DNA of 64,000 bases from Bacteroidales bacterium (GCA_963668715.1 OY764960.1:3953438-4017437), one strand, 5' to 3'. Positions 694 through 20,927 are shown, counted from the stretch's first letter. The notes: a model not told the origin generated them from the sequence alone. Translations and numbers: made by a program.

Positions 694-711
694 TTTTTAA
701 ATTGCTGCCAA

Positions 712-875
712 TAAAGCGCTAACCGAAGTTTACTCTCTTTCCTTCGTGAGATCGCTTCGTTAAGTTCGCACTGAGGGCGAAGCCAAATTGCGTTTAGGCA
801 CGTTTTGGCTCTATGCCCGGATAAAGCTCTGTTTATTATCATAAAGTTACGAAAGCAATTTGGTTTAGCGCAGCG
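712..875. repeat. Non-coding palindromic module family B, copy 1 (degenerate)
   Basis: Shares CCAAATTGCGTTTAGGCACGTTTTGGCTC...GGATAAAGCT...CATAAAGTTAC.AAAGCAATTTGGTTTAGCG with 2949-3240 and 19120-19469. Confidence 0.85.
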
Positions 876-894
876 GCATAATACAATCTATTAA

Positions 895-1236
895 TTGCAG
901 AATTCCATTTTTTCTTTTCGGCGAGCAGTAAAGGCTTATTTATGGGTAGTTCGTTCAGTGATGGACAATTTGGTGTTTTTTCATTACGATAAAGGGTCCA
1001 GGGCCCAGAAAGTTGTCATAGAATTACTCCATAATTACAAAGATGCCGTTCAAACGGATGGTTACGATGTTTATTCTATCTATGAGGATAAACAGGCCTG
1101 TGATATTAATCCCAGGGAGTGGATGACAGATGTCCTTAACAGAATCCCGGAATATAATAACAACTACGACCTGGATCTGGCAGATTTGCTCCCTCACAAC
1201 TGGAAGAAATCCAAGTGTCAGGAAAAATCCAACTAA
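895..1236 (+). pseudogene. IS66-family transposase (TnpC) remnant, internally deleted
   Basis: YLWV...FFHYDKGSR...QTDGY core motif fused directly to the C-terminal 'INPREWMTDVL...LLPHNWK' IS66 domain; IS66-type end ...GGCTTAC at ~1327. Confidence 0.8.
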
Positions 1237-1327
1237 AGTCAACGAAAATCCGGAAATCTTTGGAGATGCTCTAACAAATCCTGGACTATCTTTGATTTTT
1301 ACTACACGCAGCAGGCCGAAGGCTTAC

Positions 1328-1517
1328 TGACGTGCCATCTCATCCTCAGCAAACACCCGCCTTAATATGCGATTCTTGTTCATCAGTACAGGATTTTGCA
1401 GTCAGGCTTCCTTCATGCGGCACCTCACGATGCAACACTTGCCTCTTGCTAGCAGTTCAGTTTACCTCTGCCTGCTCGGGACTTGCACCCTATAGTTAAT
1501 GCCCATGCCGGGCGCAC
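1328..1517 (-). mobile_element. 5' fragment (domain I) of a class C group II intron
   Basis: Minus strand begins GTGCGCCCGGCATGGGC...TATAGGGTGCAAGTCCCGA...GAAGGAAGC, matching the IIC intron 5' end (GUGYGCCCGGCAUGGG); truncated at the IS66 end; no RT ORF or domain V/VI present. Confidence 0.8.
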
Positions 1518-1706
1518 ACGGTAAATTGTATGTTGCGTAGGGCATTTCAAGGCACTTTCCTGTCAAATTGCTAAGTAGCCGAAGCGCAGGTTTGACACCT
1601 GCGAATTAAGCACACCGTCAAAGCTGCGCTTCGGCGGTGCTGAAAAGAGAGCCCAAGCTTCAAATACGGCATATCTGCCCTATGCAATATACAAAATGTT
1701 GTGCCC
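1518..1706 (-). repeat. attC-like cassette recombination site 1
   Basis: Inverted arms TTGTATGTTGCGTAGGGCA / TGCCCTATGCAATATACAA; inverse core GTTGTGCCC at 1698; core GT(T) at 1519-1518 interrupted by the intron. Confidence 0.8.
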
Positions 1707-1743
1707 AGTACTTTATCTTCATTTTCTCTGCAAGATATTCAAT

Positions 1744-2058
1744 TCATCTCGAATATGCTTGAATTTCATCAATTAAGCCTTTCTCGTATGCCTTTTTTAC
1801 AGGTTTCCACACCCCAAGCCTATTTAAGAATAAACTAGCATAATTTCTTTGTATTAAAGTACCGTTAAATAAGTAATCTGTTATACGCTCAATACCTTCC
1901 TTTTTCTCTACCAAACTCAATGCAAAATCTACATATCTGGTCATCGCCAATGTTGCATCAACAGTTAATTTATCCATTATATAATCAACATCCTTAGAAT
2001 TGCCACTTTGAGCCTTATCAATTAACACTTTTAGTTCTCCTGAAAATTGAAACTTCAT
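1744..2058 (-). CDS. Hypothetical protein (cassette C2)
   Basis: Clean 104-aa ORF, 8 bp from the upstream gene, ends just before an attC-like site. Confidence 0.7.
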   Translation of the reverse strand: MKFQFSGELKVLIDKAQSGNSKDVDYIMDKLTVDATLAMTRYVDFALSLVEKKEGIERITDYLFNGTLIQRNYASLFLNRLGVWKPVKKAYEKGLIDEIQAYSR

Positions 2059-2066
2059 TACGCTCT

Positions 2067-2297
2067 TTATTTAAGTTGAATAAGAGTGTTGGTTTCCATT
2101 CCTTTTCGTATCCAACGCATAAGTGTAATTGCTTTGTACTCTCTTTCCAGATAAGTCGTTTTTAACTCATCATCCATACTATTTATCTCCAATTGATATA
2201 GATGGTTTTCTGTTTCAATGTGATAATAAACTTTTCCTGCACAAACAAAAGACAATATTGCTTTTGTACCTTTTACAATTGTTTTTAAATTTTCCAT
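2067..2297 (-). CDS. Hypothetical protein (cassette C2)
   Basis: 76-aa ORF, co-oriented in the cassette, downstream of an FNR-type box. Confidence 0.65.
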   Translation of the reverse strand: MENLKTIVKGTKAILSFVCAGKVYYHIETENHLYQLEINSMDDELKTTYLEREYKAITLMRWIRKGMETNTLIQLK

Positions 2298-2342
2298 CGC
2301 TACTAAAATTTTTGCGAAGGAACTGTGATTAATTATATTTTC

Positions 2343-2360
2343 TTTTGATGTATATCAAAA
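2343..2360. promoter_or_regulatory. Crp/Fnr-family operator (TTTTGAT-GTAT-ATCAAAA)
   Basis: Exact TTGAT-N4-ATCAA consensus, lying between the Crp/Fnr gene and two downstream ORFs. Confidence 0.65.
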
Positions 2361-2367
2361 AATGCAA

Positions 2368-2946
2368 TCAAGCTTTTCTTATCCGGCTTAAAGTTTCTTG
2401 CGAAATACCTAATATTGACGCAATATATCCAAGTTTTGCTCTCTTTATAATCTCAGGGGAAATTTGTTGTAAATACTCATATTTTCCTTTTGCATCTCTT
2501 TGATTTAATTCTCTTGTGTGTTTGTCTATATTTGAAAATTCTTTCCCCATCATTGCATTTACAAATATCATAATCTGAGGAAATTGAGCAAGTTTCTCGC
2601 TATTTGCTTTTGTTATGCTAATAACTTCTGTATTCTCAGTCGCTTGTAAATACTCTTCGGATAAAATATTTTGTGCATAGCTTTGTAATGAAGTAAATGT
2701 TTCATTCTCTGTGTGAATCCAAGTCGTAATTTCTTTTCCGTTATGAATGTAATATTTACGAACCATCCCTGATTTTATAAACCAAATTTTATTACAACGC
2801 TGCCCTTGTTCAAGAATGTGTTCATTTTTTGTATAAATCTCAATCTTAGCAAAATCATTTAATCCTGTAACTGCATCAGAATCTAATTTCACAAATCTTT
2901 CTATGTAATCAATCAATTGTTTCACTGCGGTTTTTGTATTGGGCAC
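2368..2946 (-). CDS. Crp/Fnr-family cyclic-nucleotide-binding regulator (cassette C2); true start may be the GTG ~20 nt inside
   Basis: cNMP domain (KNEHILEQGQRCNKIWFIKSGMVRKYY) and C-terminal 'YIASILGISQETLSRIR' HTH. Confidence 0.9.
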   Translation of the reverse strand: MPNTKTAVKQLIDYIERFVKLDSDAVTGLNDFAKIEIYTKNEHILEQGQRCNKIWFIKSGMVRKYYIHNGKEITTWIHTENETFTSLQSYAQNILSEEYLQATENTEVISITKANSEKLAQFPQIMIFVNAMMGKEFSNIDKHTRELNQRDAKGKYEYLQQISPEIIKRAKLGYIASILGISQETLSRIRKA

Positions 2947-2948
2947 AA

Positions 2949-3240
2949 TGCAGCGCTAAACGAAGTTCCGCACTAAGGGCGATTCCGCAAGAGCTTGCTC
3001 TTAGCGGAAGTAAAGCCCGCAAGGGCGGAGCCAAATTGCGTTTAGGCACGTTTTGGCTCAATGCCCGGATAAAGCTGTTTATTTTCATAAAGTTACAAAA
3101 GCAATTTGGTTTAGCGCTGCGTTCGAGCACATTTTCCAAAAGACCGGGACCCCGAGAATTCGGGGGAAGGGATTTTGGTCAGCTTTAGCTGAACCGAGGC
3201 CCGGTTCCGGGCCGAGCTCGGCGAAGCCAATGTGCCTAAC
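2949..3240. repeat. Non-coding palindromic module family B, copy 2
   Basis: 12-bp inverted repeats GCAGCGCTAAAC (2950) / GTTTAGCGCTGC (~3109) and several internal hairpins; homologous to 19120-19469. Confidence 0.85.
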
Positions 3241-3368
3241 GGTCACTTGTATGTGGTCGGGCGGGATTTCTGGAAGAAATCGTGTCAGACCCGCAGGAAA
3301 GTGGGCACGAGGTCTGACTTGTCAGACCGCTAAAACCCCCGCCTGCCATATACAAATTGTTATAGCCA
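3232..3368 (-). repeat. attC-like site 2 (intact)
   Basis: GTGCCTAAC-N8-GTATG...arms TTGTATGTGGTCGGGCGGG / CCCGCCTGCCATATACAA...TATAC-N5-GTTATAGCC. Confidence 0.85.
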
Positions 3369-3381
3369 GTGGTTTTATTCA

Positions 3382-4044
3382 TTATTCAAAGTCTTGATTA
3401 AATAAATACATCTCTAATTGGTCCGCTTCGACTTGATTGTCTTTAGCCAAATTATGAATTAAACTATTAAATTTTTGATAATCTGTAAATTTTGAAGATG
3501 GACTAACATTTACAATTTCAAATATTTCTCTTGGTGTCGTTAGCTTTACTAAAGATGCTGCTACTCTAATGTCAAAAATTATTGCATAATTGTCGACATT
3601 TTTAGCTCTTGTCGCGAAGTATAATATTTTTGTCAGGTAGCTAACGCCAAGACCTTTTATTCCCTTTAATTCTTCAAAAGCGTTTTTCAGACTGTCTTGT
3701 TCGTTTTTGTTTATAAAGTCTATTGCTTTTTTTATTTTCTCTGTGTTGTCATTATTTGAGATATAATTATTCGTCCGGTGAGTTCCATAACCTGTGTCAG
3801 CAAATCCCCAAATCATTGTCAATAAAAACGCCCTCATAAAACCTTTGGAATTGTCTGAAAAATATTCTTTATAAGCGTCTATTACATTTTGTCTTGAAAC
3901 TTCCTTGTTTTCAAAGTCTGTAATTAAATTCTTGAAGTCTGCATTTAATTTTGTCCACTTTGTCGAATTGTACATAAATTTTGAGTCAGTAAGTGGATTT
4001 AATTTTAGTATTTTATTTTTTTGTTGGTCGTTTAATGTAATCAT
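3382..4044 (-). CDS. OGG-like (HhH) DNA glycosylase-family protein (cassette C3)
   Basis: 'TMIWG' motif, HhH-like 'GIKGLGVSYLTKILYF' and 'IFDIRV' motif typical of 8-oxoguanine glycosylase-like proteins. Confidence 0.65.
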   Translation of the reverse strand: MITLNDQQKNKILKLNPLTDSKFMYNSTKWTKLNADFKNLITDFENKEVSRQNVIDAYKEYFSDNSKGFMRAFLLTMIWGFADTGYGTHRTNNYISNNDNTEKIKKAIDFINKNEQDSLKNAFEELKGIKGLGVSYLTKILYFATRAKNVDNYAIIFDIRVAASLVKLTTPREIFEIVNVSPSSKFTDYQKFNSLIHNLAKDNQVEADQLEMYLFNQDFE

Positions 4045-4121
4045 ACTCTATGTTTTGTGTGTCGTTCTACCATTGGCTATAACGTGAGTCTGTACAAATA
4101 CTGTTTTATCACATAAATTTA

Positions 4122-4449
4122 TCAATTTCTACTGTTTGTCAGCGGATTTGAAGCAACTAATTTTAGATGGCACAAAAAGAGAATATCCTTATTTGACGGG
4201 AAATAATCCTTTAAAGCAAGGCTTATAATGAGTCTTAGGTCTGAAATTATAAGAAAACAGTACTCCCTGAGGAGTCTGATCAGCTTTTGTGCTCCCATAA
4301 TTGAGATACAACGGCAGATATTATACCCGGTAAACATAAGTCCGACTTCACCCATGACTTTCTCCCTGGTTCTTACAAGGGTATAAGTGAAGCCTTGTTG
4401 CCGTTTCATTGTGCCAAACATATGCTCCGTTATTTGTTGCCGTAATCTG
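4122..4449 (-). pseudogene. C-terminal part of the IS1182 transposase, split off by IS21
   Basis: 'LRQQITEHMFGTMKRQQGFTYTLVR...' matches the C-terminus of 20965..22527. Confidence 0.9.
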
Positions 4450-4581
4450 TGCATATTCCTGCGATTTCGGACACTAAATCCCGCTGAAAGCGGACAGTTG
4501 TTCCCGTTCAAAACGGACACCTGATCCCGACGAAAACGGACACTTTTCACATCGTTCATTTTCGTTTATTATTTTCTAAAA

Positions 4582-5316
4582 TTAATCATTTTTATATTTC
4601 TCTCTTAACGAGTCTCCATCGAGCTCTATTCTATGAGAACTATGCACTAATCTATCAAGGATCGCGTCAGCGATCGTAGGTTCTCCAATAACATCATACC
4701 AGCTTTTAACCGGAAGCTGTGATGTAATTATCGTTGACCTTTTACCATGCCGGTCTTCGAGTAACTCAAGCAAGAACAGCCTCTGGTTGTTATCTAATGG
4801 TTTAAGCCCGAAGTCATCAAGGATCAACAGGTCCAGTTTCTCTATCCTGTTTATTTCGCTTATATAACTGCCATCTGCCTTAGCCATTTTTAGTTGATCG
4901 AACAGTTTTGAGCAGTTACGGTAATATACTTTATATCCCTGCTGACAGGCCTGATGACCCAAAGCAGAAGCCAAAAAGCTTTTACCCAGTCCTGTGTATC
5001 CGGATATGATGATGCTTTGTTTTCTTTTGATCCATTCACAGGACGATAAACGCAGCATCTGTACTTTATCCAGTTTTCTTTTAGCGATGTAATCTATTTG
5101 TTCCATGCTCGCCTGGTAGCGGAACCTGGCGTTTTTTATTAGTCGATCCAGTCGTCGATTATATCGATCATCCCATTCTGCCTGGACAAGATGAGCAATA
5201 ACTTCATCTATGGTAAAATCTTTACTCATTCCTGATTCCTGCATTTTCCGATAGACTCTTGAGAACCCGCTCAGTCGCATCTCCTCAAGTTTCTGCATTG
5301 TTGCTGTTTGATTCAT
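4582..5316 (-). CDS. istB: IS21 helper ATPase IstB
   Basis: Walker A GYTGLGKS, Walker B LLILDDFG, TSQLP...W...IADAILDRLVH. Confidence 0.95.
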   Translation of the reverse strand: MNQTATMQKLEEMRLSGFSRVYRKMQESGMSKDFTIDEVIAHLVQAEWDDRYNRRLDRLIKNARFRYQASMEQIDYIAKRKLDKVQMLRLSSCEWIKRKQSIIISGYTGLGKSFLASALGHQACQQGYKVYYRNCSKLFDQLKMAKADGSYISEINRIEKLDLLILDDFGLKPLDNNQRLFLLELLEDRHGKRSTIITSQLPVKSWYDVIGEPTIADAILDRLVHSSHRIELDGDSLREKYKND

Positions 5317-5337
5317 AATTTTCTGCTATTAAATTTA

Positions 5338-6885
5338 TTATTTGTAATTCTCTTTTCCTCGTATGTTATGATGAAAAGGAAGTTTTATTTCTATTTGGTT
5401 TTCCTGTTCTGTTTTGTGAGTGTTATTTTTCAGGCAGTTCTTGATAAACTTGAATGAGATACAGTTGTACTCAACAGCCCTGCTGCATACTATTTCCAGA
5501 TCTTCCGGTTTATACCCTTTACTTAGGTTCAATACTCCCATGCAAGATTTAAATGCTTGCTGAGGATGTTCTTTGCTGTCCAACAGGAGTCCTATAAAAA
5601 TCTCTACGGAACCGCCCATCTTTTTGGCCCATTTTACAAAACGATCTGTATTCCAACCATCAACAAACTGATGTTCTGCAGGCATATGACCTTTCTCTGT
5701 TGTATAACCATAAGGCCTGCGGTCTCTTTTATGAAGCGCGATACGAACACTATCCTTGTATATCTCAACATTCCTGTTCGTGTAAATGGTTTTGACCTTC
5801 TGTCCGGTATATTGATAGGGCACGCTGTAATAATGCTTGTCCTCTCTTAGGTAAACATGGTGGTGAAATTCAACTTTAGACACCTGGTAACGACGGATCT
5901 CATATCGCTCTTTGGGTAGTGGTCGCAATTCATTCTTTTCTATTTCATTAAATAACTCTCTTCGACTAATATCCCGGCGCTGGAACGGAGCGTTATTTAT
6001 CTCTTCAAGCTCTTCCCGGATAGCTTCATTTAACTCTCCCAGGGAAAAGAACGTCTGGTTTCTTAGCTTAGCAAAAATGCGTTGATAGACAATGCGTACC
6101 GCATTTTCAACCAAAGATTTATCCTTTGGTTTTAAAGGACGGGTAGGAAGAACAACTGTACCATAATGCCGGGCAAGATCATCATAAGTCTCATTTAATA
6201 AGGGTTCATAATTACATGCCTTGTGAACAGCTGACTTCAAATTATCCGGGCATATCCCCCGGGTGACACCTCCATAATAACGCCAGGCATTCTCATTGGC
6301 CCAGATCCAGTCTTCAAGCTTCTGACTTTTTACTCCTTCCACATAAATCAACTGACTGGCACCAAGTATCGTAATAAATATTTCTGCCGGTTTGACCTCT
6401 CCTGTATCCGGATCAACATAATGCATCTTTTTGCCTGTAAAATCTGCATATGTCAGATCTCCGGCTTTGTGCTCTATATGCATTCCCGCTTTCAGCTTGC
6501 TCTCCCACATGCGATAATGATGACAGAACCTGGAGTAACTAAACCCTTCAGGGTTACCTTCCTTGTATTCCTCCCAAAGCAAATAGAGCGTTACGCCAAC
6601 CCGGGCAAGCTCTTTTTCATAATAAGGGAATTCATTGGATAATTCTTCATAAAGCGGATTGACTATCTTATTTCGCTTTTCAAAGACTTCTGTAAGTTCT
6701 ATGTCGTTCATTTCCAAAACATCCTGGTAGGTTAACCCGGAACGCTTATATTCTGCCAGGTACTCCCCAACACTGGTTTTGCTGACCTGGGTGGCCTCTG
6801 CAATCTGCCGGATGCTAAATCGTAATTCCTGACTAAGTCGTAATATCTCTCTTATCTTTTCCACGTTGGTCCTTTTTCTTGGCAT
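5338..6885 (-). CDS. istA: IS21 transposase IstA (start taken at MPRKRT)
   Basis: HTH N-terminus, 'YADFTG', 'PDNLKSAV', 'PKDKSLVE' rve/DDE motifs. Confidence 0.95.
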   Translation of the reverse strand: MPRKRTNVEKIREILRLSQELRFSIRQIAEATQVSKTSVGEYLAEYKRSGLTYQDVLEMNDIELTEVFEKRNKIVNPLYEELSNEFPYYEKELARVGVTLYLLWEEYKEGNPEGFSYSRFCHHYRMWESKLKAGMHIEHKAGDLTYADFTGKKMHYVDPDTGEVKPAEIFITILGASQLIYVEGVKSQKLEDWIWANENAWRYYGGVTRGICPDNLKSAVHKACNYEPLLNETYDDLARHYGTVVLPTRPLKPKDKSLVENAVRIVYQRIFAKLRNQTFFSLGELNEAIREELEEINNAPFQRRDISRRELFNEIEKNELRPLPKERYEIRRYQVSKVEFHHHVYLREDKHYYSVPYQYTGQKVKTIYTNRNVEIYKDSVRIALHKRDRRPYGYTTEKGHMPAEHQFVDGWNTDRFVKWAKKMGGSVEIFIGLLLDSKEHPQQAFKSCMGVLNLSKGYKPEDLEIVCSRAVEYNCISFKFIKNCLKNNTHKTEQENQIEIKLPFHHNIRGKENYK

Positions 6886-7128
6886 CTGTATTCTCTTGTT
6901 GGTTAATAAAGCCAACAGAGATACCGATATCCCGTGGAAAATGAATGATGTGTATGAAAGTGTCCGTTTTCAGCAAGAATCACCGTCCGCTTTCAAAAGG
7001 GGCGGCTGTCCGCTTTCCGCAGGAATCCGTGTCCGTTTTCAACAAGAATTGCTGTCCGCTTTCCGCAGGAATCCGTGTCCGCTTTCCGCAAGAATGAGTG
7101 TCCGTTTTGCGCGAGAATATGCAATCTG

Positions 7129-8372
7129 TAATAATCAGGATTGTCATTCACTCTTTGTGCATTGGCTTCAATGATATCAGCATATTCACTGCGGTCAATG
7201 TACCTTCCGTTGGCTCTGCATACAGTGCAAAGACTCCTGTTTCTACAGTTCCTGCAGTCGGGCGTAGTATATCTCTTAAACCGATATGCAGATTTCTTCT
7301 TATTCTTTCTGTCTCTGTGATTATGCCAACGTCCGTTGGTCTTCATAATGCTTCCTCCGGGACAGGTATAAAAATCATTCTTTTTATCATAGGTAAAACT
7401 ACTGACAGGATATAGTCCTGTATTTTTTGTTGATGGCTTCTTTGGAGAGACGTATGTAATAATATTATGTAAGCTGCATTCTTTCAATTGCTCGCCTGTG
7501 TGATACCCCTTATCGGACAGTACTGTCATAGTATCAACATCAAGAAGTTCTTTTGTACTTACCGCCACCGGAGCCAGTGCATGGGAATCATTCACATCTC
7601 CCGTGTCATATTCCAGCATCATTTTGTGCTTTGAATCTGATGCGGCCTGTATATTATAACCAACATTCACTATGTTCCTGTGTAATACAACGGCTTTTGA
7701 ATCAGGGTCTGTTGTTGATATCTGTTCCTGTCCGCTTTCGATCAGGTCCGCTTGTATATTTTGATACTCTGATCTCTTAAGCCTGCGTTCTGTAAGTTTC
7801 TTTTCAATGTCTTTCTTATCCTGCTCATTATCATTGGCATCCAGCAGTTCTTCATATTCACTGATCTGTTTGTCAATATATTCAATATGCCTTTTCAGTT
7901 TTGCTTCATTGAAATTATTCTTTAACGAATTGCTCCCTCTTATTTTGAAAGAATCAATTGCAACGTTTTCACCTTCTACAAGATCCCATTCCTTAAGCAG
8001 GCAAACGAATCGCCGGAATATCTCCCTGAATGCTTTTGCATTTTCTTTTCTGAAGTTAGCAATGGTCTTATATTTGGGTCTCAGTCCCGTGAGCAGCCAC
8101 ATGGCTTCGATATTTGTTTGAGCCTCTCTCTCAAGTTTTCTGGATGACCGTATTCCATACCTGTATCCATACAGGTACAGCTTAAGCAAGACTGAAGGAT
8201 GATAAGGCGGCCTCCCTTGTTCTTCACAGTTGACGTGTGCAAATCCAAAGCTTTCCAGGTCAATAACATCAACAAAAGCATCAACCACACGAACAAATGA
8301 ATCGGCAGCTATTGCATTCTCCAGGCAGAACATTAACACCTGATCCCTGTTTTCTCCCTGTTTGTGTTGGAT
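7129..8372 (-). pseudogene. N-terminal and central part of the IS1182 transposase; the start ATG of the intact copy is ATC here
   Basis: GRPPYHP...YGYRYGIRSSRKLERE (DUF772) and DDE motifs; truncated by IS21. Confidence 0.9.
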
Positions 8373-8474
8373 TGCAGTGTGTATTTGTTGAATACAAGAT
8401 ACTTAAAGTATGATCAAAGATTAAATATCGAATGAATTGGTTATCAACAAAACAGTGGGTTTTTGCACAGTCTG

Positions 8475-8740
8475 ACGGTCATCGGTATGATTCAGTAGGT
8501 GGCAACGGGCTTCAGACCGTTGTGGCGCGCTTTTTGCCTTTACCACCCAGCGTTCACGCCGGGACAGTTCACCCGTCATAATACTGTTCACTTTTCTGAA
8601 CGTTAAGTTAGTTAATTTAAGTTCACGGAATACTAGCCGTGATTATGTTTAAAATCTTCTATTCATTATACTCTTCACCCCGATAAATGCGGCTGCAAAA
8701 ACGCGTGCCAAACCTATTGATTATACCGCATGTTGTGCAT
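8475..8740 (-). repeat. attC-like site 3 (long, ~265 bp; core split by IS1182)
   Basis: (A)AC-N8-GTATG; arms CGGTATGATTCAGTAGGTGGCA / TGCCAAACCTATTGATTATACCG; TATAC-N5-GTTGTGCATAG at 8732. Confidence 0.75.
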
Positions 8741-8774
8741 AGTGATTTTTTAGAAAACATTTATCATATCATTC

Positions 8775-10624: not shown

Positions 10625-10681
10625 AGTTTCTATTTAATTTATTAATTGGCTCTTAATCTACAACGGTTACTCAACCATTAT

Positions 10682-10815
10682 GCACAACGGTTGGTGTATG
10701 AGGCGTTGGGCATTTCGAAGCACTTCACTGTCAAACCGCTAATATGTTTATTAAATGTACTCATGCTTCAATTAACCACTTGCTGCCCAATGACTTATAC
10801 ACATTGTTGTGTGCC
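10682..10815 (-). repeat. attC-like site 4 (intact)
   Basis: GCACAAC-N7-GTATG; arms GTGTATGAGGCGTTGGGCA / TGCCCAATGACTTATACAC; TATAC-N5-GTTGTGTGCC at 10806. Confidence 0.85.
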
Positions 10816-10888
10816 CGTGCTTTATTTTCCTCAGTCAGTCTGTGCGATGGGGCAGACATACTCTTTGGCAAGTTTTGGTTTGCGGTTG

Positions 10889-10919
10889 GCTTGTGTGACT
10901 TGCCAATGTGTATGGATGC
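10889..10919. repeat. 31-bp direct repeat, copy 1
   Basis: GCTTGTGTGACTTGCCAATGTGTATGGATGC, identical at 15509-15539. Confidence 0.9.
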
Positions 10920-10926
10920 TTTCAGG

Positions 10927-12159
10927 CTAAATTCTGAAGTCATTCGGTTCAAATTCAAGTACTTTATCAATGATGTCAATATTTTGTTTTCTTTTTTTCA
11001 ACCATCGTTCTTTCCAATAATCAACTAATTCGGTTTTTGTATAATTGTTAAAATGTGGTTGTTTTGTCTCTCCATTTAAAAAAGCCTTGTATTCTTTTGC
11101 TAATGGTACAAAATAAATATTTCTTCTAAATGAGTGTTTTAATAAAAAATCACTATCAAATCCCAAAAGATCGCCTGAAGTACGAATTACACGCATTACC
11201 CAACTTGGTCCATCCCCAAATTTATGACCTACATTGATTCCTTTTGATTTTAGAAGTTGAATCATTAGTAGTATAGTTTCTTCGCTTAAATGTAACGTTC
11301 CAAAACCCTTTGTTTTCCCAATTGGTAGATATAGTAATTCATCACCAAACTTCATTCGATTGTATTGGGAGCTATTTCCATATAAACTTGTTGTAAAAAT
11401 ACCTACAAGTTTATTTGCGACTCTTTTTTCTGTAAGGGTAACTTTCCCTTGATATTTTTTACGGTAGATTTCTCTTATTTCATTGGATGCAAGAATGTAA
11501 GAAATGAGTTTCCCCCCTAATAAATAATTGTATGGTGGTAGAGCTCCAATCACGTAAGCATCTAATGTGTATATCAGATTTTTTGTCCTAGTGTTTTTAT
11601 TCCAACCTATAAAGTCATCTCTTTCAGGAATATGAATAATAGGGCTTCCTAATGCAGCAATTCCAATGACAGGTTTATTTGGTAATGCTCTGTCCCGTAT
11701 TATGAGTTTAATTCTTCTTCCGACATATTCGCTGTAAGGCGAACTCCAATAATATCTTAAAATCCTGAATAATCTATGCTGTTGCCTTGTTTCACAAACT
11801 TCTATAATTGGGTCGATATTTGAACTTAACACGTCTGTTCCTACAGCAAGGTTTTTTCTTGCAAATTCAATGTTATTATCAATCCATTTTTTATGTTTCA
11901 AAATAATTTCATCTCGTTTAAAAGACATTGATTTCTTTATAGTTTCTTTATCGTAACTTTCAGGAGGAATTAAAGTCGGATAAGCATTTTTCGTAGTTGG
12001 CAGTTTAAATTTCCACTTTAATCTTTCCAAGTCACGTCTAATACTATTAATTACCTGTTCTTCAAGTGCTGTTTCCTTTTTCTTGTTTGAAACTGCTTTT
12101 GGTATCACATTTTTAGATGTGATTTCTTTAGGTAAAATAAGTTCTGTTGATTCTTTCAT
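10927..12159 (-). CDS. DUF4338 / Druantia DruA-like protein
   Basis: 'YVGRRIKLIIRD...GIAALGSP', 'AYVIGALPPYNYLLGGKLI', 'TTSLYG.SSQYNR', 'IGKTKGFG' motifs recalled from the DUF4338 family. Confidence 0.75.
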   Translation of the reverse strand: MKESTELILPKEITSKNVIPKAVSNKKKETALEEQVINSIRRDLERLKWKFKLPTTKNAYPTLIPPESYDKETIKKSMSFKRDEIILKHKKWIDNNIEFARKNLAVGTDVLSSNIDPIIEVCETRQQHRLFRILRYYWSSPYSEYVGRRIKLIIRDRALPNKPVIGIAALGSPIIHIPERDDFIGWNKNTRTKNLIYTLDAYVIGALPPYNYLLGGKLISYILASNEIREIYRKKYQGKVTLTEKRVANKLVGIFTTSLYGNSSQYNRMKFGDELLYLPIGKTKGFGTLHLSEETILLMIQLLKSKGINVGHKFGDGPSWVMRVIRTSGDLLGFDSDFLLKHSFRRNIYFVPLAKEYKAFLNGETKQPHFNNYTKTELVDYWKERWLKKRKQNIDIIDKVLEFEPNDFRI

Positions 12160-12160
12160 T

Positions 12161-14212
12161 TCAATTCAAGATTCTTTCCCAATTACTTTTAGGAGCACAA
12201 TAAAACTTCACAATTCCTTTATCTCCATGTTCTGCTTGTTGAACTGTTATATCACATTCTAATAATATGTTGAGAATAACAGATTTTAACTCATTTTCAC
12301 TTCTAAATTCATCTTGAAACTCATCTATTTGTTTTATGTCTTTCAGAATCATGTAAAGTTGTCCGTCATATATGCCCCAAACATCATCGTCAAATGATTT
12401 TCCTGAAAGTTTTGACTTATTCTCTTTTAATTTTGCTTGTAGTGCTTCTGCTAACGCTTTGTTTCTTGCTTCTGATTTTTTTCTAATTTCTTTTGCTGCT
12501 GATTTTTCAAAAGGGACTGCATCCTTATTCTTATTAACTGTTTCTGAATAAAGCTCTTCAAAACTTCTAATTCTCACAGGCAAAACAAATGGTTGTTTTG
12601 GAGCACTCCACATATAACAGTTTCCAGATATAGGTTCACCAATTAAATGAGCAAGTACATCGTGAGAATAGTGTGAATTGTATTTGCCTAAAGTTCCAGC
12701 ATCCCCTTCTGAAAGCAAATGAAAACTAAACCAATTATCTGCTTGGCTTAATAGTTCAGGTGACATAGAACCTGGCTGTTGAGTAACTAAAATTGCACCT
12801 AAATCATATTTCCTTCCTTCCTTAACCCACTCAACAAAAGGACTTGATTCTTCCAAGTTTCTTCCTAATACACTCTGTGCTTCCTCAATTATTGATATAA
12901 CTGGAATTGGAGATTCTCCTGTGAAATTCTCTTGGTTATAATTGAAAATTCTTCTCATCAATAGACCTGCAACATTATATCCTGCAGTGGAACTTAGCAT
13001 ACTAATATCAACGACAACACAATGCCCCTCTCTAAGTGCTTCAATTGTTCCATTTAAAAGTTGGCTATTGGGGTCGTGAAGATGATTAACAACATTACTC
13101 ATATTACTTTTTGCGGCTAAAATCTCTGCCCTAGCATCAGTAGGATTTGTATATCCAAGTATTCTTCCCAATGTTGCATCATCTGCATTTAATCCATCTC
13201 GTGAAATTAAATCGACTAATTCTCTCCATCTTGCAGAGTCAAGTGATTTTAATTTAATAACGTTTTGTTGATTTTGTCGGTCTGGCGAAATAGAAATCCC
13301 AATTACGTCTCTAGAAGGTAAATCGCGAATGTCAATTCTTACATTTCCTGCTTTCCAACTATCATAATAAGGTGATGGTGATGGTCGAGAAGTAAAGACA
13401 ACAATGTGTTCTTGAAGTTGGGGTACATCGCAAAGTCCAGGTCTGTCGTTAAAATCTGGCCAAAAATATTCGCCATCAGCATCAAATATTAAAACACCTA
13501 CATCTTTGCTTCTTTCTCCTCTATCAGTCTTTGGAACACCGTCACGAAAAAGTTCACCCATTAAAAATTTAATGAGATTTGATTTTCCATATCCTGCTCT
13601 TGCAAAAACAACAGAACGCTTTGAAACGAGATTATTGATATTGAAAGTTACTTTGAGAGACGGTGAAATATGTCTTAAAACAGATTCTTGCTCGGACGTT
13701 CTGCCAGAGTAGACAAATTCACCTAAAACATAGTCGCCTAAATCTGTGTTGCCTTCGCTTAGTTGGCATAGCTCCGTAAGAACAATATCGCTTGGCAAAG
13801 CGACCTTTGCACCCAAATGAGGTAATCGTCTCTGAGAAGGAACAAATATTATTCTTTCATTTCCATTTTGAGTTACGTTTTTTACAGCCCCAAGCAGCTT
13901 AATTTGAACTTTATATTTCAGTTTCTGCTTTTTTAAATCTTCTGGGACATCTTGGTCTCGACTCTGCATAGTATTAATATAATCTTCACCTTCTGCCGAA
14001 GCGAGTAATCCAGAAGGAACAAATTTTGTAATTCTTCCTAAGGATGCTTCATCTTTTGAACTAAGTTCAATTAAAAGAAATTGACCTAATTGGGGTCGCT
14101 CAAGCATTGATGAATTATAAGGAGCAACAATTTCTGCTGCAAACTCGAATCCTCTTTCACTGAAGCCTTTGAAAGTTCCAAAGACGTTTGATTTTGCAAA
14201 TAATTCAGGCAT
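12161..14212 (-). CDS. HerA/FtsK-superfamily ATPase (HerA-like)
   Basis: N-terminal HAS-barrel-like region, Walker A ARAGYGKS, FDADGEY, Walker B IIEEAQ, arginine finger EGRKY, VTQQP. Confidence 0.9.
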   Translation of the reverse strand: MPELFAKSNVFGTFKGFSERGFEFAAEIVAPYNSSMLERPQLGQFLLIELSSKDEASLGRITKFVPSGLLASAEGEDYINTMQSRDQDVPEDLKKQKLKYKVQIKLLGAVKNVTQNGNERIIFVPSQRRLPHLGAKVALPSDIVLTELCQLSEGNTDLGDYVLGEFVYSGRTSEQESVLRHISPSLKVTFNINNLVSKRSVVFARAGYGKSNLIKFLMGELFRDGVPKTDRGERSKDVGVLIFDADGEYFWPDFNDRPGLCDVPQLQEHIVVFTSRPSPSPYYDSWKAGNVRIDIRDLPSRDVIGISISPDRQNQQNVIKLKSLDSARWRELVDLISRDGLNADDATLGRILGYTNPTDARAEILAAKSNMSNVVNHLHDPNSQLLNGTIEALREGHCVVVDISMLSSTAGYNVAGLLMRRIFNYNQENFTGESPIPVISIIEEAQSVLGRNLEESSPFVEWVKEGRKYDLGAILVTQQPGSMSPELLSQADNWFSFHLLSEGDAGTLGKYNSHYSHDVLAHLIGEPISGNCYMWSAPKQPFVLPVRIRSFEELYSETVNKNKDAVPFEKSAAKEIRKKSEARNKALAEALQAKLKENKSKLSGKSFDDDVWGIYDGQLYMILKDIKQIDEFQDEFRSENELKSVILNILLECDITVQQAEHGDKGIVKFYCAPKSNWERILN

Positions 14213-15362
14213 TTCTATATCTTATGTTAGTTAAATTTTGACCTAAGTGTTTCATTCTTAATATTTTTTCCTTCTCATCTTTTGTAAGTTTCTGTGTAAT
14301 TCCTTCAAAAAGTATATCCTGTAAAATATCCATTTCAAGACCGTTCACTTTTGCAAAATCATGAGCTTTCTGGACACACATTGGAAAATCAGGAATAGGG
14401 AAACCGGGTTGAGCATCTTTTGTCAGTTGCCCAATTATTTTTTCGGCATCGTCAAGTTGCCATTCAGCAATATCAACTGGCCACACTGGGTCGAAGGGTC
14501 TATCCCCAAACTTCACCAAAAACATTTTTCCAATAGCTTGATAACGATACGTTCCATTTTCATCTGGCTGACTTGTTTCAAGTGTGTCAAGCCAAGTTCT
14601 ATCAAAATTATAGCAATCAGCCTCAATATCATCAGGCACTTGGACATAACAGGGATATGGCTTATGTAATGCTCCTTCCAACTCAAGAGCAACAGAAAGT
14701 CTACTTAAAACCGCACTTTGTTTAGCAACTCCAACCATTGAAACTGAAATGTTTTTCTTCTTGTGGGTATTGTAGGCTTCTCTTATTAATTGGTCAATTA
14801 AAGGGAATACAGTTAGTTTAAACGATTTTGTTCTTAACATTCCCTCTCTGACAATAATTGTATCCGAACCCCATTCACGATATTTCATTAAATCATATAG
14901 AACAGCCCATTCAACAATATCCCTGTAAACCCTCACAGCACCTGTACTCTTTCCGGGTTCTTCAATTCCTTTTAGGAGATAGGATAAATCAAGAACACTC
15001 ATTGTTAAATCTTGACAAAGCTTTCTTAATGGTTCAACTAATAATGGACTACCGTGATTTGCTCGTTCATTAAAATCAGCAGCTTTCGAATTTCCTGCGA
15101 TAGCATCTAAAGCGCATTGATTTCCTCTTGAATCAACGACACGTACTAATTCAATAACCGCTGGATTAAAGTAAAGTCGGTTATCACCTCCATCAGAAGA
15201 TACAAAAGAAACGGCATTAACAGAATATGGTCTAATTGGTTTTACGTCATTCTTAATACGTCTTGCATATTCTCTGAATTTTTGCAAAATAGGGTCCTCA
15301 TTTTTGTATGCATCAAAGACTCTTTTTTTTATTTCAGTAAAGTTATCATCTGCTAATGCCAT
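14205..15362 (-). CDS. NurA-domain nuclease
   Basis: 'FVSSDGG' and 'IIVREGML' catalytic-type motifs, 'VGVAKQS', C-terminal 'GFPIP...KAHDFAKV'; overlaps the HerA gene by 8 bp. Confidence 0.8.
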   Translation of the reverse strand: MALADDNFTEIKKRVFDAYKNEDPILQKFREYARRIKNDVKPIRPYSVNAVSFVSSDGGDNRLYFNPAVIELVRVVDSRGNQCALDAIAGNSKAADFNERANHGSPLLVEPLRKLCQDLTMSVLDLSYLLKGIEEPGKSTGAVRVYRDIVEWAVLYDLMKYREWGSDTIIVREGMLRTKSFKLTVFPLIDQLIREAYNTHKKKNISVSMVGVAKQSAVLSRLSVALELEGALHKPYPCYVQVPDDIEADCYNFDRTWLDTLETSQPDENGTYRYQAIGKMFLVKFGDRPFDPVWPVDIAEWQLDDAEKIIGQLTKDAQPGFPIPDFPMCVQKAHDFAKVNGLEMDILQDILFEGITQKLTKDEKEKILRMKHLGQNLTNIRYRNA

Positions 15363-15508
15363 ATCTATTTTTTATTGTTTATAAGATTTTTCAAAGGTAA
15401 TAATATGAATTTTTCAATTTAGTTTTTTTATATTTTGATTTGTTTTAGTATTCAATCCGGGTTTCTTGCGTTGGCAAAGATTTGGCTCTTTTGCAAGCTG
15501 AAGCGTTT

Positions 15509-15539
15509 GCTTGTGTGACTTGCCAATGTGTATGGATGC
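15509..15539. repeat. 31-bp direct repeat, copy 2
   Basis: Identical to 10889-10919; lies just downstream of the gajB stop. Confidence 0.9.
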
Positions 15540-15560
15540 ATTGTGCTAGCATTGTGTTGA

Positions 15561-17213
15561 TTATTGTTTTTTCGTCTTATATCTTAATTTTTCAATATTG
15601 TTTAATAGTAAAAATTCCGAATCTCTACCTTGTCTCTTTATCATTTCATTATTGTGTCTTTCAGTACTAGAAATCAGGATACATCCTTTTCTTGCTCTTG
15701 TTAATCCAACATAATGTAAGTTTAAGTCTTGATTCCAATCTCCATAAACAGGATTATTAAAGTCATTATTCGGACCTGGTCTTTTATTTGGAAATACCCA
15801 TTCGTAAAGGTCAAGATGAATTACAACATCATATTCTAGCCCTTTTGATTTATGCAAAGTAAGTATGTTTACTTCATCATCATTCGCTGTTTGATATGAG
15901 TTAAGCTCAACCGAATTATTAAGTACAGAATCCAAAAGGTCGATGGACTCTTTACTTTCAAGATTTGGCGCAATTATTTTTGCGACATTGATAAATTCCT
16001 TTTTAAGCTCATCTAAATCAAGTGGTGAATGGTGTGAGATTTTTTCAATAGTTTCCTTGTATGTTTTCAGTTTTTTTAAATCCCTTGATGAAAATCTATC
16101 ATATGAAGTAAACACCTCTACAACATCAATAAATCTGTAGCCCTTATCGAAAACAAAGTAGAGTAAATTTGAAAATATTGCTGACCAAATATTTAAATTG
16201 AGGTCTAGCTCATTACTAACAAATAACCTATGTGGTGATTTTAAATTTTCATTTATTATGTCTGCGCTTCGATTTCCTCTTGTTAATATCGCTATTTGAT
16301 TTCTGTTTTTTACCTTAAAGATTTTCTGAATAGAATCTATTTTATCGTCAACCCATTTTGCGATGGATGTCTCATCACCATTTATCCTACTAAAGAAAAT
16401 TTGATTAATGTCTGTTTGAATTAGTTCAGTCTTTGGGTTTAATAAATAGTTCGAATAATTAATGATACTAGGATGGCATCTGTGGTTTTTATCAAGTTTA
16501 AAAAATTTAAAATTATCATCTGTTGTTAGTTCTTCTAAGTATTTTGAGTCTTTTCCCGAAAAAGCATATATTGATTGATTCAAGTCACCAACCGCAACTG
16601 CAACTATACCTAAATCGTTTATTTTCTTAAATATTTGGTGTTGCTCAAATCCTGAGTCTTGGTACTCATCTATGTAAATATGTTTGTATTTGGCTTTTAT
16701 ATATTTACGACAGGCAATTGAGTTTGTAAAAACATAGTCTGCAAAAACTCCAATTGTTTCAATAAGTATTATACCATTGCTAAAAAAAACACCTAAATCC
16801 TTTATCTTTTTTTTTTCAAGTTGTTCAAGAGTCAAATTTCTATCAACCCAATCAAATCTATCTTTATCTTCATCAGAAAGAGAAGAGTGTTTTATAATCT
16901 TTATCTCATTATTAGGAATTCCGAATATATGTTTTGCAAAAGGAACAATTATCTCTGATAAATTGAATTTGTCAATTGTACCAAAAAAAGAGCCTAAAGG
17001 TTTTTCTCCATTTGACAAGCTTCTGTTTTTTAATTCATTACTAGCTTTATTGGTGTAGGATATTGCAACCACACCTTGATGGTCGTGTAAATCTTTTAGA
17101 TTATCTTTTATTTTCTTGGACAATACAAACGTCTTCCCACTTCCAGGAGCAGCAATGACAACAGAATTGCCATCATAATCAAGAATTAAATTTTGTTGGT
17201 CAGTCGGCTTCAT
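15561..17213 (-). CDS. gajB: UvrD-like helicase, Gabija GajB-like (start taken at MKPTDQQ)
   Basis: AAPGSGKT, YTNKA, IDEYQD, GDLNQSIY, TLHKSKGLEYD, YVGLTRAR; overlaps the OLD-nuclease gene. Confidence 0.8.
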   Translation of the reverse strand: MKPTDQQNLILDYDGNSVVIAAPGSGKTFVLSKKIKDNLKDLHDHQGVVAISYTNKASNELKNRSLSNGEKPLGSFFGTIDKFNLSEIIVPFAKHIFGIPNNEIKIIKHSSLSDEDKDRFDWVDRNLTLEQLEKKKIKDLGVFFSNGIILIETIGVFADYVFTNSIACRKYIKAKYKHIYIDEYQDSGFEQHQIFKKINDLGIVAVAVGDLNQSIYAFSGKDSKYLEELTTDDNFKFFKLDKNHRCHPSIINYSNYLLNPKTELIQTDINQIFFSRINGDETSIAKWVDDKIDSIQKIFKVKNRNQIAILTRGNRSADIINENLKSPHRLFVSNELDLNLNIWSAIFSNLLYFVFDKGYRFIDVVEVFTSYDRFSSRDLKKLKTYKETIEKISHHSPLDLDELKKEFINVAKIIAPNLESKESIDLLDSVLNNSVELNSYQTANDDEVNILTLHKSKGLEYDVVIHLDLYEWVFPNKRPGPNNDFNNPVYGDWNQDLNLHYVGLTRARKGCILISSTERHNNEMIKRQGRDSEFLLLNNIEKLRYKTKKQ

Positions 17214-18966
17214 TCTGAATTTTTTCAATTATGCTTTTGCATTCAAGAAGTGGTTTTGAAATTGGGTTATCTTTTAGTTTTGTAAGTGAGTTTTTATTGT
17301 TCTTTAGAAAATCAAACATAAAGGTTGCTTTTCTTTTTTGCATTGCCTCCACTATTTCTTCTTCCTCCAATTCAGGAAAGAAATCAATTATTTCTTTTTT
17401 TATAGGACTATTGAAGAAATCATTCTCTAAATCAATTTCTGATAAATACAAGCCGTAGTACTCAAGTTCCTCAATAACAGCATTTGCAGATTCCAAATTT
17501 TCCTTTGGTGGATTAGAATCACCTGACCATTTTAGGTTTGATTCATTCTCCAATAGAATTTTTTCTGTTTCATCATCAGGATTGAAAAACTCTTTATAAT
17601 AGGAAATACATCTTTGAATACCTGCAAAACGATGTTTTTCTTTTTTAGGTACTTTAAATATATCATTGTCTGTTCTAAGTACCCAATCAATTTCTAGGCT
17701 ATTTAATATTTGAATGTATGTTGAAAATCCTATTCCATCCACCATAAGAACACTGATATTTAGTCTATCTAAATCAATTCCTATTTGTGTCGATAATGTT
17801 TTATAGAATAGTTCTTCTGATGGTCCCTCAATTAACAAAACAGCATCTGAAAAGAAGGCTTCTGATGTAATAATACTCTTACGATAACCAAAATCAACAA
17901 ATGCATCATCTATAATTTTTGAACAACCATTTGATGCTGCTTTTGTAGCGTCTTTTTTATTTAATAAACGAACTATTGAATTTGGGCTAAATTCAGAAGT
18001 TATTTGTGATGAGTGAGAAGTCAATAATACTTGACCATTTAGAGAGGAATTAAGATAATCAGCTAATTTTCTTTGTTGATGTGGGTGTAAATGTGCTTCT
18101 GGCTCTTCAATACAAAATATTGTAACTTCTGTCAAGCTTTCTTCAGTTATTCCATTTCTTGAAGTCCATAAAGCTAAATATATCTGATTCAAACGACCAT
18201 CTCCACCAATAACAACATTCTCTCCATTACTTTTTGATGCAATTGCTACATTTTTTACAAAGCTATCTGCATTAGATGTACTGGCATCAAAAAGTACTTC
18301 TTGTTTTTTATGATGTAAAGACAACTTAGAAAGTTCGTTGTTGATTGTATTAGTAGCATTTGCAATAAAATTTAGTTTTGGGATTTTTTCATCGACTTTT
18401 TTTAAATCATCTTGAATTTCAGAGAATAACTTGTCGTCAGAGTCAGTTTGCTCATCAGTTCTATCTTCTTTCGCAATCTGAAATAAATAATTTCTTTCGT
18501 TTCGAATATAATTATTAAAATCTCTCTTGCTACTTATATATTTTACATTAAGAACTTTTCTGTAGTATCTATCTTCAATTTCTTCAATATCTTCATATGA
18601 TTTTCCAGCAAACAGTTTATAAGATTTAGCACCTGTCGATTTTTCCCTAATACCTTTATAAACCAAAACTAACATATCATCATCACTAATCTTCCCTTTC
18701 AATTTCGCCACAACGCAATCATCAACAACATCTTCAAAAAACAGTGTAATTTCAAATTCGTTTGTTTCTTCATATGCATAAAAGTCAGAATCTCTAGGCT
18801 CAATATCATAGTCAGATAAACTTCTATCTAATAAAAGTCTAATCGCCCACATTAAATTTGTTTTACCAACATCATTTGAGCCAATGACTAAAGATTTCTT
18901 GGTTAAATTTATTTTAGCCTTTTTGAAATTCCGAAAACCCTTAAGATTTAAAGTCTTTAGTATCAT
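17200..18966 (-). CDS. gajA: OLD-family ATP-dependent nuclease (ABC ATPase + TOPRIM), Gabija GajA-like
   Basis: GFRNF, GSNDVGKTN, IEEPEAHLHP, TSHS; TOPRIM 'LIEGPSE' and 'TDND'. Confidence 0.85.
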   Translation of the reverse strand: MILKTLNLKGFRNFKKAKINLTKKSLVIGSNDVGKTNLMWAIRLLLDRSLSDYDIEPRDSDFYAYEETNEFEITLFFEDVVDDCVVAKLKGKISDDDMLVLVYKGIREKSTGAKSYKLFAGKSYEDIEEIEDRYYRKVLNVKYISSKRDFNNYIRNERNYLFQIAKEDRTDEQTDSDDKLFSEIQDDLKKVDEKIPKLNFIANATNTINNELSKLSLHHKKQEVLFDASTSNADSFVKNVAIASKSNGENVVIGGDGRLNQIYLALWTSRNGITEESLTEVTIFCIEEPEAHLHPHQQRKLADYLNSSLNGQVLLTSHSSQITSEFSPNSIVRLLNKKDATKAASNGCSKIIDDAFVDFGYRKSIITSEAFFSDAVLLIEGPSEELFYKTLSTQIGIDLDRLNISVLMVDGIGFSTYIQILNSLEIDWVLRTDNDIFKVPKKEKHRFAGIQRCISYYKEFFNPDDETEKILLENESNLKWSGDSNPPKENLESANAVIEELEYYGLYLSEIDLENDFFNSPIKKEIIDFFPELEEEEIVEAMQKRKATFMFDFLKNNKNSLTKLKDNPISKPLLECKSIIEKIQNEAD

Positions 18967-19119
18967 GATTTATTATGTTTTAAAGTCTTTATGTTCATTT
19001 TAATTATCCTCTTCATTGGGTAGGTAAAAAATAGCTCTTTTGTTTTTTTAATTTGCATGTGTGTCGGCAAAAAACAAATGTGCTATTTGTGCTGTGGGCT
19101 GTTTTAGCATGGCACACAA

Positions 19120-19469
19120 TGCAGCGCTAAACGAAGTTCCGCACTGAGGGCGAAGGCTGCCGAGCTTGCTCGAGCAGACTGTAAAGCCCGCAAGGGCGGG
19201 ACCAAATTGCGTTTAGCGTCCATGTTCTGACACGTTTTGGCTCGATGCCCAGGTAAAGCTGTTTATTATCATAAAGTTACTAAAGCAATTTGGTTTAGCG
19301 ACTTGTTCTTGCACGTTTGGGCTCGATGCCCGGATAAAGCTGTTTATTATCATAAAGTTACAAAAGCAATTTGGTTTAGCGCTGCATTCGAGCACATTTT
19401 CCAAAAGACCGGGACCCCGAGAATTCGGGGGTAGGGATTTTGGTCAGCTTTAGCTGAATGTGCTCGAAC
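19120..19469. repeat. Non-coding palindromic module family B, copy 3, with an internal 81-82 bp tandem duplication
   Basis: TGCAGCGCTAAAC (19120) / GTTTAGCGCTGCA (19374); duplicated unit across 19211-19381; TTCGAGCACATT / AATGTGCTCGAA inverted pair across 19388-19468. Confidence 0.9.
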
Positions 19470-20894: not shown

Positions 20895-20927
20895 TTTGTT
20901 GGTTGTCTTTTAAATGCACCATAACGG

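Follow-up and report, generated by a model that had tools for sequence, protein, structure and literature searches.

Palindrome-rich modules of a Bacteroidales cassette array as probable attC-type recombination sites, two of them carrying a gene-less cassette

The window analysed here, a 64,000 nt stretch of DNA, is C1:3953438-4017437 of the single-contig (C1) 4.27-Mb genome of an uncultured Bacteroidales bacterium (GCA_963668715.1 OY764960.1), and our subject is a family of palindrome-rich, non-coding modules, three copies of which lie in the window. We consider it probable that these three modules are attC-type recombination sites of an integron-like cassette array and that two of them also carry a tiny gene-less cassette, a degree of confidence that covers the explanation as a whole. 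Comparison of copies divides the modules into two parts, A and B; the A family is a major site type in the arrays, not an intruder, and the modules are not a new class of element but a known kind in an unusually long, branched form. The three copies had been reported in an initial annotation, the coordinates and sequences of which proved correct, and they are homologous to one another.

Part A and the cassette junctions

Each module begins right after ...CAA, with a T where the AAC core of the array has a C, as had been described initially for all three: ...GCCAA^TAAAGCGCTAAC at 711/712, ...GCACAA^TGCAGCGCTAAAC at 2948/2949 and ...CACACAA^TGCAGCGCTAAAC at 19119/19120. End-matching was assessed in 19 complete A copies by taking the 8 nt to the left of A plus a C, and seeking the reverse complement of this 9-mer downstream. 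The exact 9-mer recurred 0.45-4.8 kb downstream in 12 of the 19 copies, as against none of 19 in the control direction, and the partner of module 3, which lies at 8.3 kb, is a thirteenth match (13/19). Every matched partner is the GTT end of an ordinary palindromic attC, directly after the stop codon of an open reading frame (ORF). All three window modules obey this left-flank rule: in module 1 the inverse core that follows ORF 127-693, GTTGGCAGCA at 108-117, has the flank TGCTGCCAA (703-711) as its reverse complement; in module 2 the flank GGGCACAA (2941-2948) matches GTTGTGCCC at 1699-1707 exactly; and in module 3 the flank GGCACACAA (19111-19119) matches GTTGTGTGCC at 10806-10815, the end of an 8.3-kb cassette. 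This end-matching of flank and partner argues that the next cassette was joined at the left edge of A, and, because the cassette's own inverse core always reads GTT, the cut-side T or C must belong to A and not to the downstream cassette. The proposal that the modules sit exactly at the crossover position is therefore upheld by the 13 matches against none in the control.

A genome-wide blastn search with the three window modules as queries found 73-74 loci of the family in ~10 clusters (C1: 315, 718, 881-965, 1695-1730, 2395-2441, 2660-2669, 3157-3183, 3551-3565, 3931-3972 and 4212 kb), which greatly exceeds what chance would give. Within each cluster the copies have one orientation only; in 63 of 73 loci the module has both flanking ORFs on the other strand, and in all 73 it has at least one there. 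The GC content of the clusters is 34-39% (mostly 34-36%) as against 40.3% for the genome, and the copies are confined to these low-GC cassette arrays, where they form co-oriented clusters and not the scatter of repetitive extragenic palindromic sequences. At most of the 73 loci A alone is the sole candidate site between two ORF cassettes, and the idea that a module abuts the start of a cassette has to be replaced: A is instead the attC of the preceding cassette. Such sole-site copies read AA^Y, a 5-nt spacer GCNGC, a 7-bp box GCTAAAC ... GGTTTAGC, 1-4 unpaired nt and GTTRRRY beside the ORF stop, and in several of them the right-hand box matches the next junction to the right, where a recognizable site start follows. 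The A sites of the ORF-cassette subtype possess, besides an R box and a 7-bp L box, a spacer that measures 5 nt on one side and 1-4 nt on the other. Beyond this species, A and B are found with 73-85% identity within the same Bacteroidales family, in other species and other genera, and their neighbouring genes are always different.

The termini of A, TGCAGCGCTAAAC...GTTTAGCGCTGCA, are 13-bp inverted repeats, and together with the high copy number and the targeting of the same AAC position in the arrays by an insertion sequence (IS) and a group II intron they could suggest that A is a non-autonomous transposon resembling a miniature inverted-repeat transposable element (MITE), directed to attC by a transposase in trans. 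We regard this as extremely improbable. Target-site duplications are absent at every copy, orientation is uniform within each cluster and antisense to the flanking genes, and copies occur in arrays only, so that the MITE-like parasite considered by the initial annotation finds no support in any of these respects. In addition, most loci have no other attC into which A could have inserted, the flanks obey end-matching, and the terminal repeat carries compensatory changes, as a paired stem does.

As an attC-type site, part A (~172 bp) extends from [T/C]GC[A/T]GCGCTAAAC to GTTTAGCGC[T/A]GC[A/G], and its interior comprises a branch region, A1, with several optional hairpins, a stem formed by CCAAATTGC and GCAATTTGG, and a conserved A2 loop of ~80 nt. 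The 12-13-bp inverted repeat GCAGCGCTAAAC/GTTTAGCGCTGC and the 9-bp repeat CCAAATTGC/GCAATTTGG, both noted previously, are present. Module 2 contains a complete A-type attC (2949-3121, plus strand; crossover 2948/2949, AA^T), identified by fold, covariation and flank match, in which a 13-bp outer stem is predicted to pair 2949-2961 with 3109-3121, followed by the A1 branch with its hairpins, the inner stem CCAAATTGC/GCAATTTGG (3031-3039 with 3100-3108) and then the A2 loop. Part A of module 3 (19120-19386, plus strand; crossover 19119/19120, AA^T) is an A-type attC with the same three-way junction as module 2; its A2 unit is duplicated in tandem, with 81 bp per copy (19224-19304 and 19305-19385), and its cut-side T pairs with the A at 19386. 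Module 1 (712-875, plus strand), identified by family homology and bearing an A1a branch variant, is a degenerate A-type attC without B. Its repeats are TAAAGCGCTAACC on the left and GGTTTAGCGCAGCG on the right, its fold is no better than those of shuffled sequences (z -1.2), and its right side is broken by an IS66 fragment and an intron fragment.

Folded as single-stranded DNA, the plus strand of module 2 forms a three-way junction of -44.9 kcal/mol (z -4.9), compared with -36.9 kcal/mol (z -3.2) for the minus strand, and parts A and B of module 3 have the same three-way architecture (z -7.0). Covariation was analysed in an alignment of 21 distinct full copies from this genome and from metagenome-assembled genomes of at least five other species. 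Standard pairs occupy 97.3% of the cells, as against 90.1% in shuffles and 31-46% with a slid partner; changes on both sides occur in 12 pairs, and the A1 hairpin has six covarying pairs. The stem-closing pair beside the cut is C-G in eight copies and T-A in seven, while the middle spacer pair is A-T in nine, C-G in seven and T-A in two, with one copy reading GGAGC/GCTCC. The G·U/G·T wobbles of helix 2 fit the plus strand only, since they would be A·C mismatches on the minus strand, which argues that the plus strand is the one under selection to fold. In the window modules the plus strand is the predicted folding (bottom) strand and the cassettes are read on the minus strand; judged from the aligned sequences, the bottom strand would be the folding, recombining strand of A.

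Covariation and G·U pairs specific to the plus strand, a structure kept across genera and a hairpin resembling a GCAA tetraloop (GCCC-GCAA-GGGC) are also what might be seen if A, or A with B, encoded a structured non-coding RNA, transcribed from the plus strand antisense to the cassettes, and if the covariation reflected that RNA. This appears very improbable to us, although less so than the transposon. No module matched Rfam, whether the whole window was searched at gathering thresholds or 650-3450 at E <= 1; RNase P and a group II intron fragment were the sole Rfam matches in the window, and no promoter motif was found. Moreover, recombination junctions fall on the edges of the element to the very base, and the R and L boxes are formed by its ends; for an attC, too, the plus strand is the one that should fold; and the interior tolerates hairpin insertions, the 81-bp duplication and truncations.

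The T at the cut side of A, proposed earlier as a possible alternative A^TT junction, is a real and recurrent variant (T for C on the plus strand) that covaries with its pairing partner. Among recognizable left ends of A in the arrays, 23 are AA^T and 14 AA^C. The N-type sites, as we call the ordinary attC sites described below, are mostly AA^C, with T in only three, and in related species the cut-side base of A is mostly a C paired with G, with one T-A case. Copies of B followed by A with the T-A pair are found upstream of at least eight different cassettes, and since the cut-side base travels with its attC, the simplest reading of these junctions is that A^TT sites have been repeatedly cut and joined. 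Gene conversion among copies is an alternative source of the recurrent T-A pair. On the former reading, the A^TT variant would be cut in vivo.

Our current working model is that the window holds part of an integron-like array with its genes on the minus strand and an attI-like start at ~24.5 kb. The bottom strand of A would fold into a three-way junction, with an outer stem in which AA^Y is paired to RTT, the spacer GCNGC to GCNGC and the box GCTAAAC to GTTTAGC, with the conserved A1 as side branch and with an inner 8-9-bp stem capped by the A2 loop. A tyrosine recombinase would cut between AA and the next base of what is presumably a single-stranded DNA substrate and exchange strands with attI or another attC, and the unit formed by B and A would have gone through many rounds of excision and re-insertion, into attI-like sites as well as ordinary attC sites.

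Two further observations concern the interior of A. A perfect 22-nt palindrome, GAGACGCCATGCATGGCGTCTC, is inserted in A2 of five A-family sites (C1:888822, 893321, 896602, 2667813 and 3949170) and looks like a small hairpin module spreading within sites of this family. At C1:4212475-4212553 a small orphan locus consists of an attI-like sequence, part B and an A collapsed to TGCAGCGCTTCA, the two terminal repeats being fused, from which it follows that the whole interior of A can be lost.

Parts A and B as a gene-less cassette

Part B runs from TTC[A/G][G/A]GCAC to GTGC[C/T][T/C]GAA and consists of hairpins only, one of variable sequence and another, of 38 nt, optional; it measures 79-122 bp among the catalogued copies, and 84 and 119 bp in the window. 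Joined to A it is a complete minimal cassette of 255-350 bp that contains no gene (B+A). About 15 whole or partial copies of B are found in the genome, and the complete ones, with self-complementary ends, lie directly against an ordinary attC, an attI-like site or the end of an IS. The ends follow the pattern TTCAGGCAC...GTGCCTGAA[C/T], then A, and their complementarity is the end-matching rule for a cassette of which A is the attC. No ORF is conserved in B+A, the copies of which differ by indels; the overlapping ORFs 2909-3139, 2934-3188 and 3053-3397 are likewise unconserved, and these indels are of hairpin size, in agreement with the earlier statement that the modules hold no credible ORF.

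In module 2 part B (3122-3239, plus strand) is a gene-less cassette body of hairpins only, including the optional third hairpin CCGAGGCCCGGTTCCGGGCC..., and the whole cassette, A with B, occupies 2949-3239, is read on the minus strand and has its crossover at 3239/3240 (AA^C). Module 3 has a short-form body (19387-19468, plus strand), TTCGAGCAC...GTGCTCGAA, that folds as a closed hairpin of its own, in a cassette spanning 19120-19468 on the minus strand with its crossover at 19468/19469. Both copies had been thought to obey the end-matching rule roughly. This is true of module 3, where the ends of B are perfectly complementary, but not of module 2, where TTCGAGCAC stands opposite GTGCCTAA (GTGCCT-AAC) and the ends mismatch. 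The pairing suggested initially for module 2, of GTGCCTAAC (3232) with GTTTAGGCAC (3040), is probably coincidental, GTTTAGGCAC being a constant internal stretch of A2 in many A copies; the true partner of the end of B is the start of B (TTCAGGCAC...GTGCCTGAAC in other copies).

The insertion record of B+A is that of a mobile cassette. It follows nine of 27 N-type attC sites, and both at C1:2669 kb and in the 4212 kb orphan locus it stands as the first cassette next to an attI-like sequence. In a genome of another genus (G019) a recombinase homologue (38% identity) is followed by 120 nt, then G^TTCAGGCAC-B-A and then G^TT.... We never found B+A after an A-type attC, which could reflect a preference for certain partners or the loss of A-B-A arrangements by homologous recombination. 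The initial proposal of a gene-less cassette parasitizing the recombinase is thus well founded in that B+A obeys end-matching and has spread to many sites.

A regulatory role, in which B+A supplies a promoter, terminator or insulator to the cassette downstream, would be compatible with such mobility. In its favour, B+A alternates with ORF cassettes in C1:958-965 kb and always stops short of the next ORF start by a few to a few tens of bases, and most gene-less cassettes of Vibrio carry sense promoters that are unpredictable in silico (PMC11014356). A scan for sigma-70 promoters and terminators found none in B and one weak terminator-like hairpin in A (3016-3029, minus strand), the total for the region not exceeding that of shuffles, and a scan of both strands of the three modules for the Bacteroidetes promoter TTTG-N17-23-TAnnTTTG gave one relaxed match only. 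Thus B has neither a sigma-70-like promoter nor a terminator-like site, and no Bacteroidetes-type promoter was recognized; the alternation is equally explained by insertion preference, since B+A is preceded by an N-type attC, an attI-like site or an IS end but in no case by an A-type attC. For these reasons we think a regulatory cassette unlikely, though it is a better candidate than an RNA gene.

Candidate recombinase and known systems

The best IntI-like gene of the genome, at C1:1736418-1737566, is the sole candidate recombinase gene; it lies upstream of, and is co-oriented with, the 1695-1730 kb array. The closest solved relatives of its product are the archaeal XerA enzymes 4a8e and 5hxy, and it has an extra N-terminal region of ~105 residues without a Pfam match. 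Adjacency in two genomes links this XerA/IntI-like enzyme to the sites, and it is probably their recombinase. Its stop codon is followed by an attI-like sequence of ~100 bp (C-ATTTGTGTATATGTATACATATATTTTTACTATATCTC...; C1:1736304-1736410), further copies of which occur at C1:2669546-2669606 and, 81% identical, at the upstream end of the window array (24527-24634, plus strand). Two of the attI-like copies, that of the window included, head arrays without an adjoining recombinase, and because the sequence after the recombinase stop codon recurs at 24527-24634, the window array appears to start at an attI-like site that lacks a recombinase of its own.

Several findings weigh against the interpretation of the modules as attC sites served by such an enzyme. 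The recombinase scores 213.9 bits with NF040815 (XerA/integron integrase), below the cut-off of 220, and 183.8 bits, in two pieces, with TIGR02249, for which the cut-off is 265; it also lacks the IntI-specific insertion, having 30 residues where VchIntIA (2a3v) has 73. With its boxes A measures ~190 nt, outside the usual attC length of 57-141 nt, and unlike a textbook attC it bears a large branch of ~70 nt on the 5' arm. The central spacer of the B-linked A subtype is not unpaired but fully paired and covarying, and no single-base bulges that could serve as extrahelical bases were found in the outer or inner stem of the consensus fold. The covariation and wobbles fit a bottom-strand attC, yet would equally fit a plus-strand RNA, and the sequence conservation of A1 and A2 across genera exceeds what folding needs, so that a second function besides folding is conceivable for them. 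Finally, several A-only copies (e.g. C1:914934 and 959771) have no recognizable GTT inverse core on the right side and may be dead sites. End-matching on the right side failed for several A-only copies, and a looped-out AGCGC that would restore it was considered and dropped as too weakly supported.

The modules nevertheless share much with the attC sites of chromosomal integrons, such as the Vibrio cholerae repeats (VCR), and of attC clusters without an integron integrase (CALIN). In all of these the site is at the 3' end of the cassette and is an imperfect palindrome with AAC and GTT boxes and a crossover at the first base of GTT; the start of the cassette is complementary to its own inverse core, the bottom strand folds, the sites of one genome form a homogeneous family, and several arrays have no adjoining integrase. 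Unlike VCR and CALIN sites, A is a three-way junction of ~190 nt with a conserved branch on the 5' arm, no evident extrahelical bases and one subtype with a paired spacer; of the 37 A-type sites, 23 have T/A as the cut-side base; the same arrays also contain a second attC family, the N-type (~135 nt), unrelated to the first; and the associated recombinase, co-oriented with the cassettes, is without the IntI-specific insertion.

Gene-less cassettes have been reported from the superintegrons of Vibrionaceae, where they form a diverse set, most of them with promoters (Blanco et al. 2024, PMC11014356). Like those, B+A has its own attC and no ORF and is interspersed in large chromosomal arrays. It differs in being one hairpin-only cassette of 255-350 bp in ~15 copies, conserved across genera, often first after an attI-like site and with no detectable promoter motif.

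Comparable in layout is rAID-1 (recombinase-associated acquired interbacterial defence) of gut Bacteroidales, described as a 5' XerD/XerA-like tyrosine recombinase followed by a co-oriented low-GC array of unrelated genes with intergenic repeats 'reminiscent of integrons' (Ross et al. 2019; bioRxiv 10.1101/471110), and recognized by a 5' XerD-like recombinase with >=44% identity to B. fragilis BF9343_RS08045, at least two co-oriented downstream genes and a GC content of <=41%. At C1:1695-1737 kb the recombinase, which as in rAID-1-type arrays is without the IntI-specific insertion, is likewise upstream and co-oriented and the GC content of the array is 35.5%, and G019 has the same layout, the resemblance being one of layout and GC content; the window array has only the attI-like end. 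In the rAID-1 paper the repeats are not resolved into sites, junctions or folds. Unlike rAID-1, the arrays described here form ~10 clusters that add up to several hundred kb, belong to an environmental lineage, and carry miscellaneous as well as defence-type genes. The modules may also be compared with the attC-targeting IS1111-attC elements and group IIC-attC introns, which likewise occupy the attC crossover region; unlike these, neither A nor B encodes anything or has transposase-type ends with duplications, and they move as a cassette by every test made here.

Unusual here are the site's shape and cross-genus conservation, the paired variant cut-side base and the success of an empty cassette. 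Integron recombination is thought to depend on the shape of attC, that is, on an unpaired spacer and extrahelical bases read by an integrase-specific domain. The platform described here appears to work without that domain, and would thus be a natural experiment on the requirements of attC. Surveys with IntegronFinder have found almost no integrons in Bacteroidetes (PMC9024848), and standard integron finders probably overlook arrays of the present kind. The empty cassette, present in many copies, is a candidate selfish cassette, or else one with a non-obvious regulatory role. It is possible, and we put it forward tentatively, that this is a Xer-type platform of environmental Bacteroidales without a domain that reads extrahelical bases, in which the branch of A replaces those bases, A^TT and G^TT are both tolerated if the cut-side base is paired, and B+A is a true, self-propagating parasite. 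If so, an empty cassette has colonized a third of the ordinary attC sites as well as attI-like sites.

Other sites and elements of the window array

The N-type attC is ~135 nt long and reads AAC-N6-TGTATG...ATACA-N3-GTT. At least 28 occur in 420 kb of array according to a covariance model, R1, that has only six base pairs and a poor seed alignment, so that the 28 hits are a lower bound in which other types of attC are uncounted; an nhmmer census of ordinary attC sites, a method too insensitive for the purpose, gave 25 hits only. On the plus strand of the window, N-type sites at 3232-3367 (R1, 87.6 bits) and 19460-19596 (R1, 97 bits) received the B+A cassettes of modules 2 and 3, respectively. 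The cassette that starts at module 2 has its N-type attC at 1512-1706 (plus strand), with GTTGTGCCC as its right end, and the 8.3-kb cassette that starts at module 3 has its own at 10680-10814 (plus strand; R1, 112.7 bits). A third kind of site, full of short repeats like AACGCGGAAC, closes the cassette of ORF 127-693 at 1-126. Within the 8.3-kb cassette a 38-nt repeat occurs at 10885-10922 and 15505-15542 in copies 95% identical, and may be a shared regulatory sequence.

An IS of ~1.7 kb, with ends G[T/G]GAGTCTGTGCAAA...TTTGCACAGTCTGAC and a 520-aa transposase of DUF772 and DDE_Tnp_1 type, lies directly after the AAC of an ordinary attC in at least five places (window 20927-22636 and 4084-8483; C1:916883, C1:2399383 and ~1708, 1720 and 1730 kb), so that the attC crossover seems to be its target. 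A nested IS21 (istA 5338-6915, istB 4582-5316) interrupts the copy at 4084-8483, and at the start of the split transposase ORF (6993-8339) a 23-bp unit (GTGTCCGCTTTCCGCAGGAATCC) is repeated in tandem five to seven times (6954-7120).

The truncated 5' part of a group II intron, starting GTGCGCCCGG, lies at 1260-1519 on the minus strand (Rfam RF02001 at 1315-1434), inserted at the crossover end of the attC at 1512-1706, and a fragment of an IS66-family transposase (895-1236, plus strand) adjoins it. A second attC with the same intron end is found at ~C1:2414 kb.

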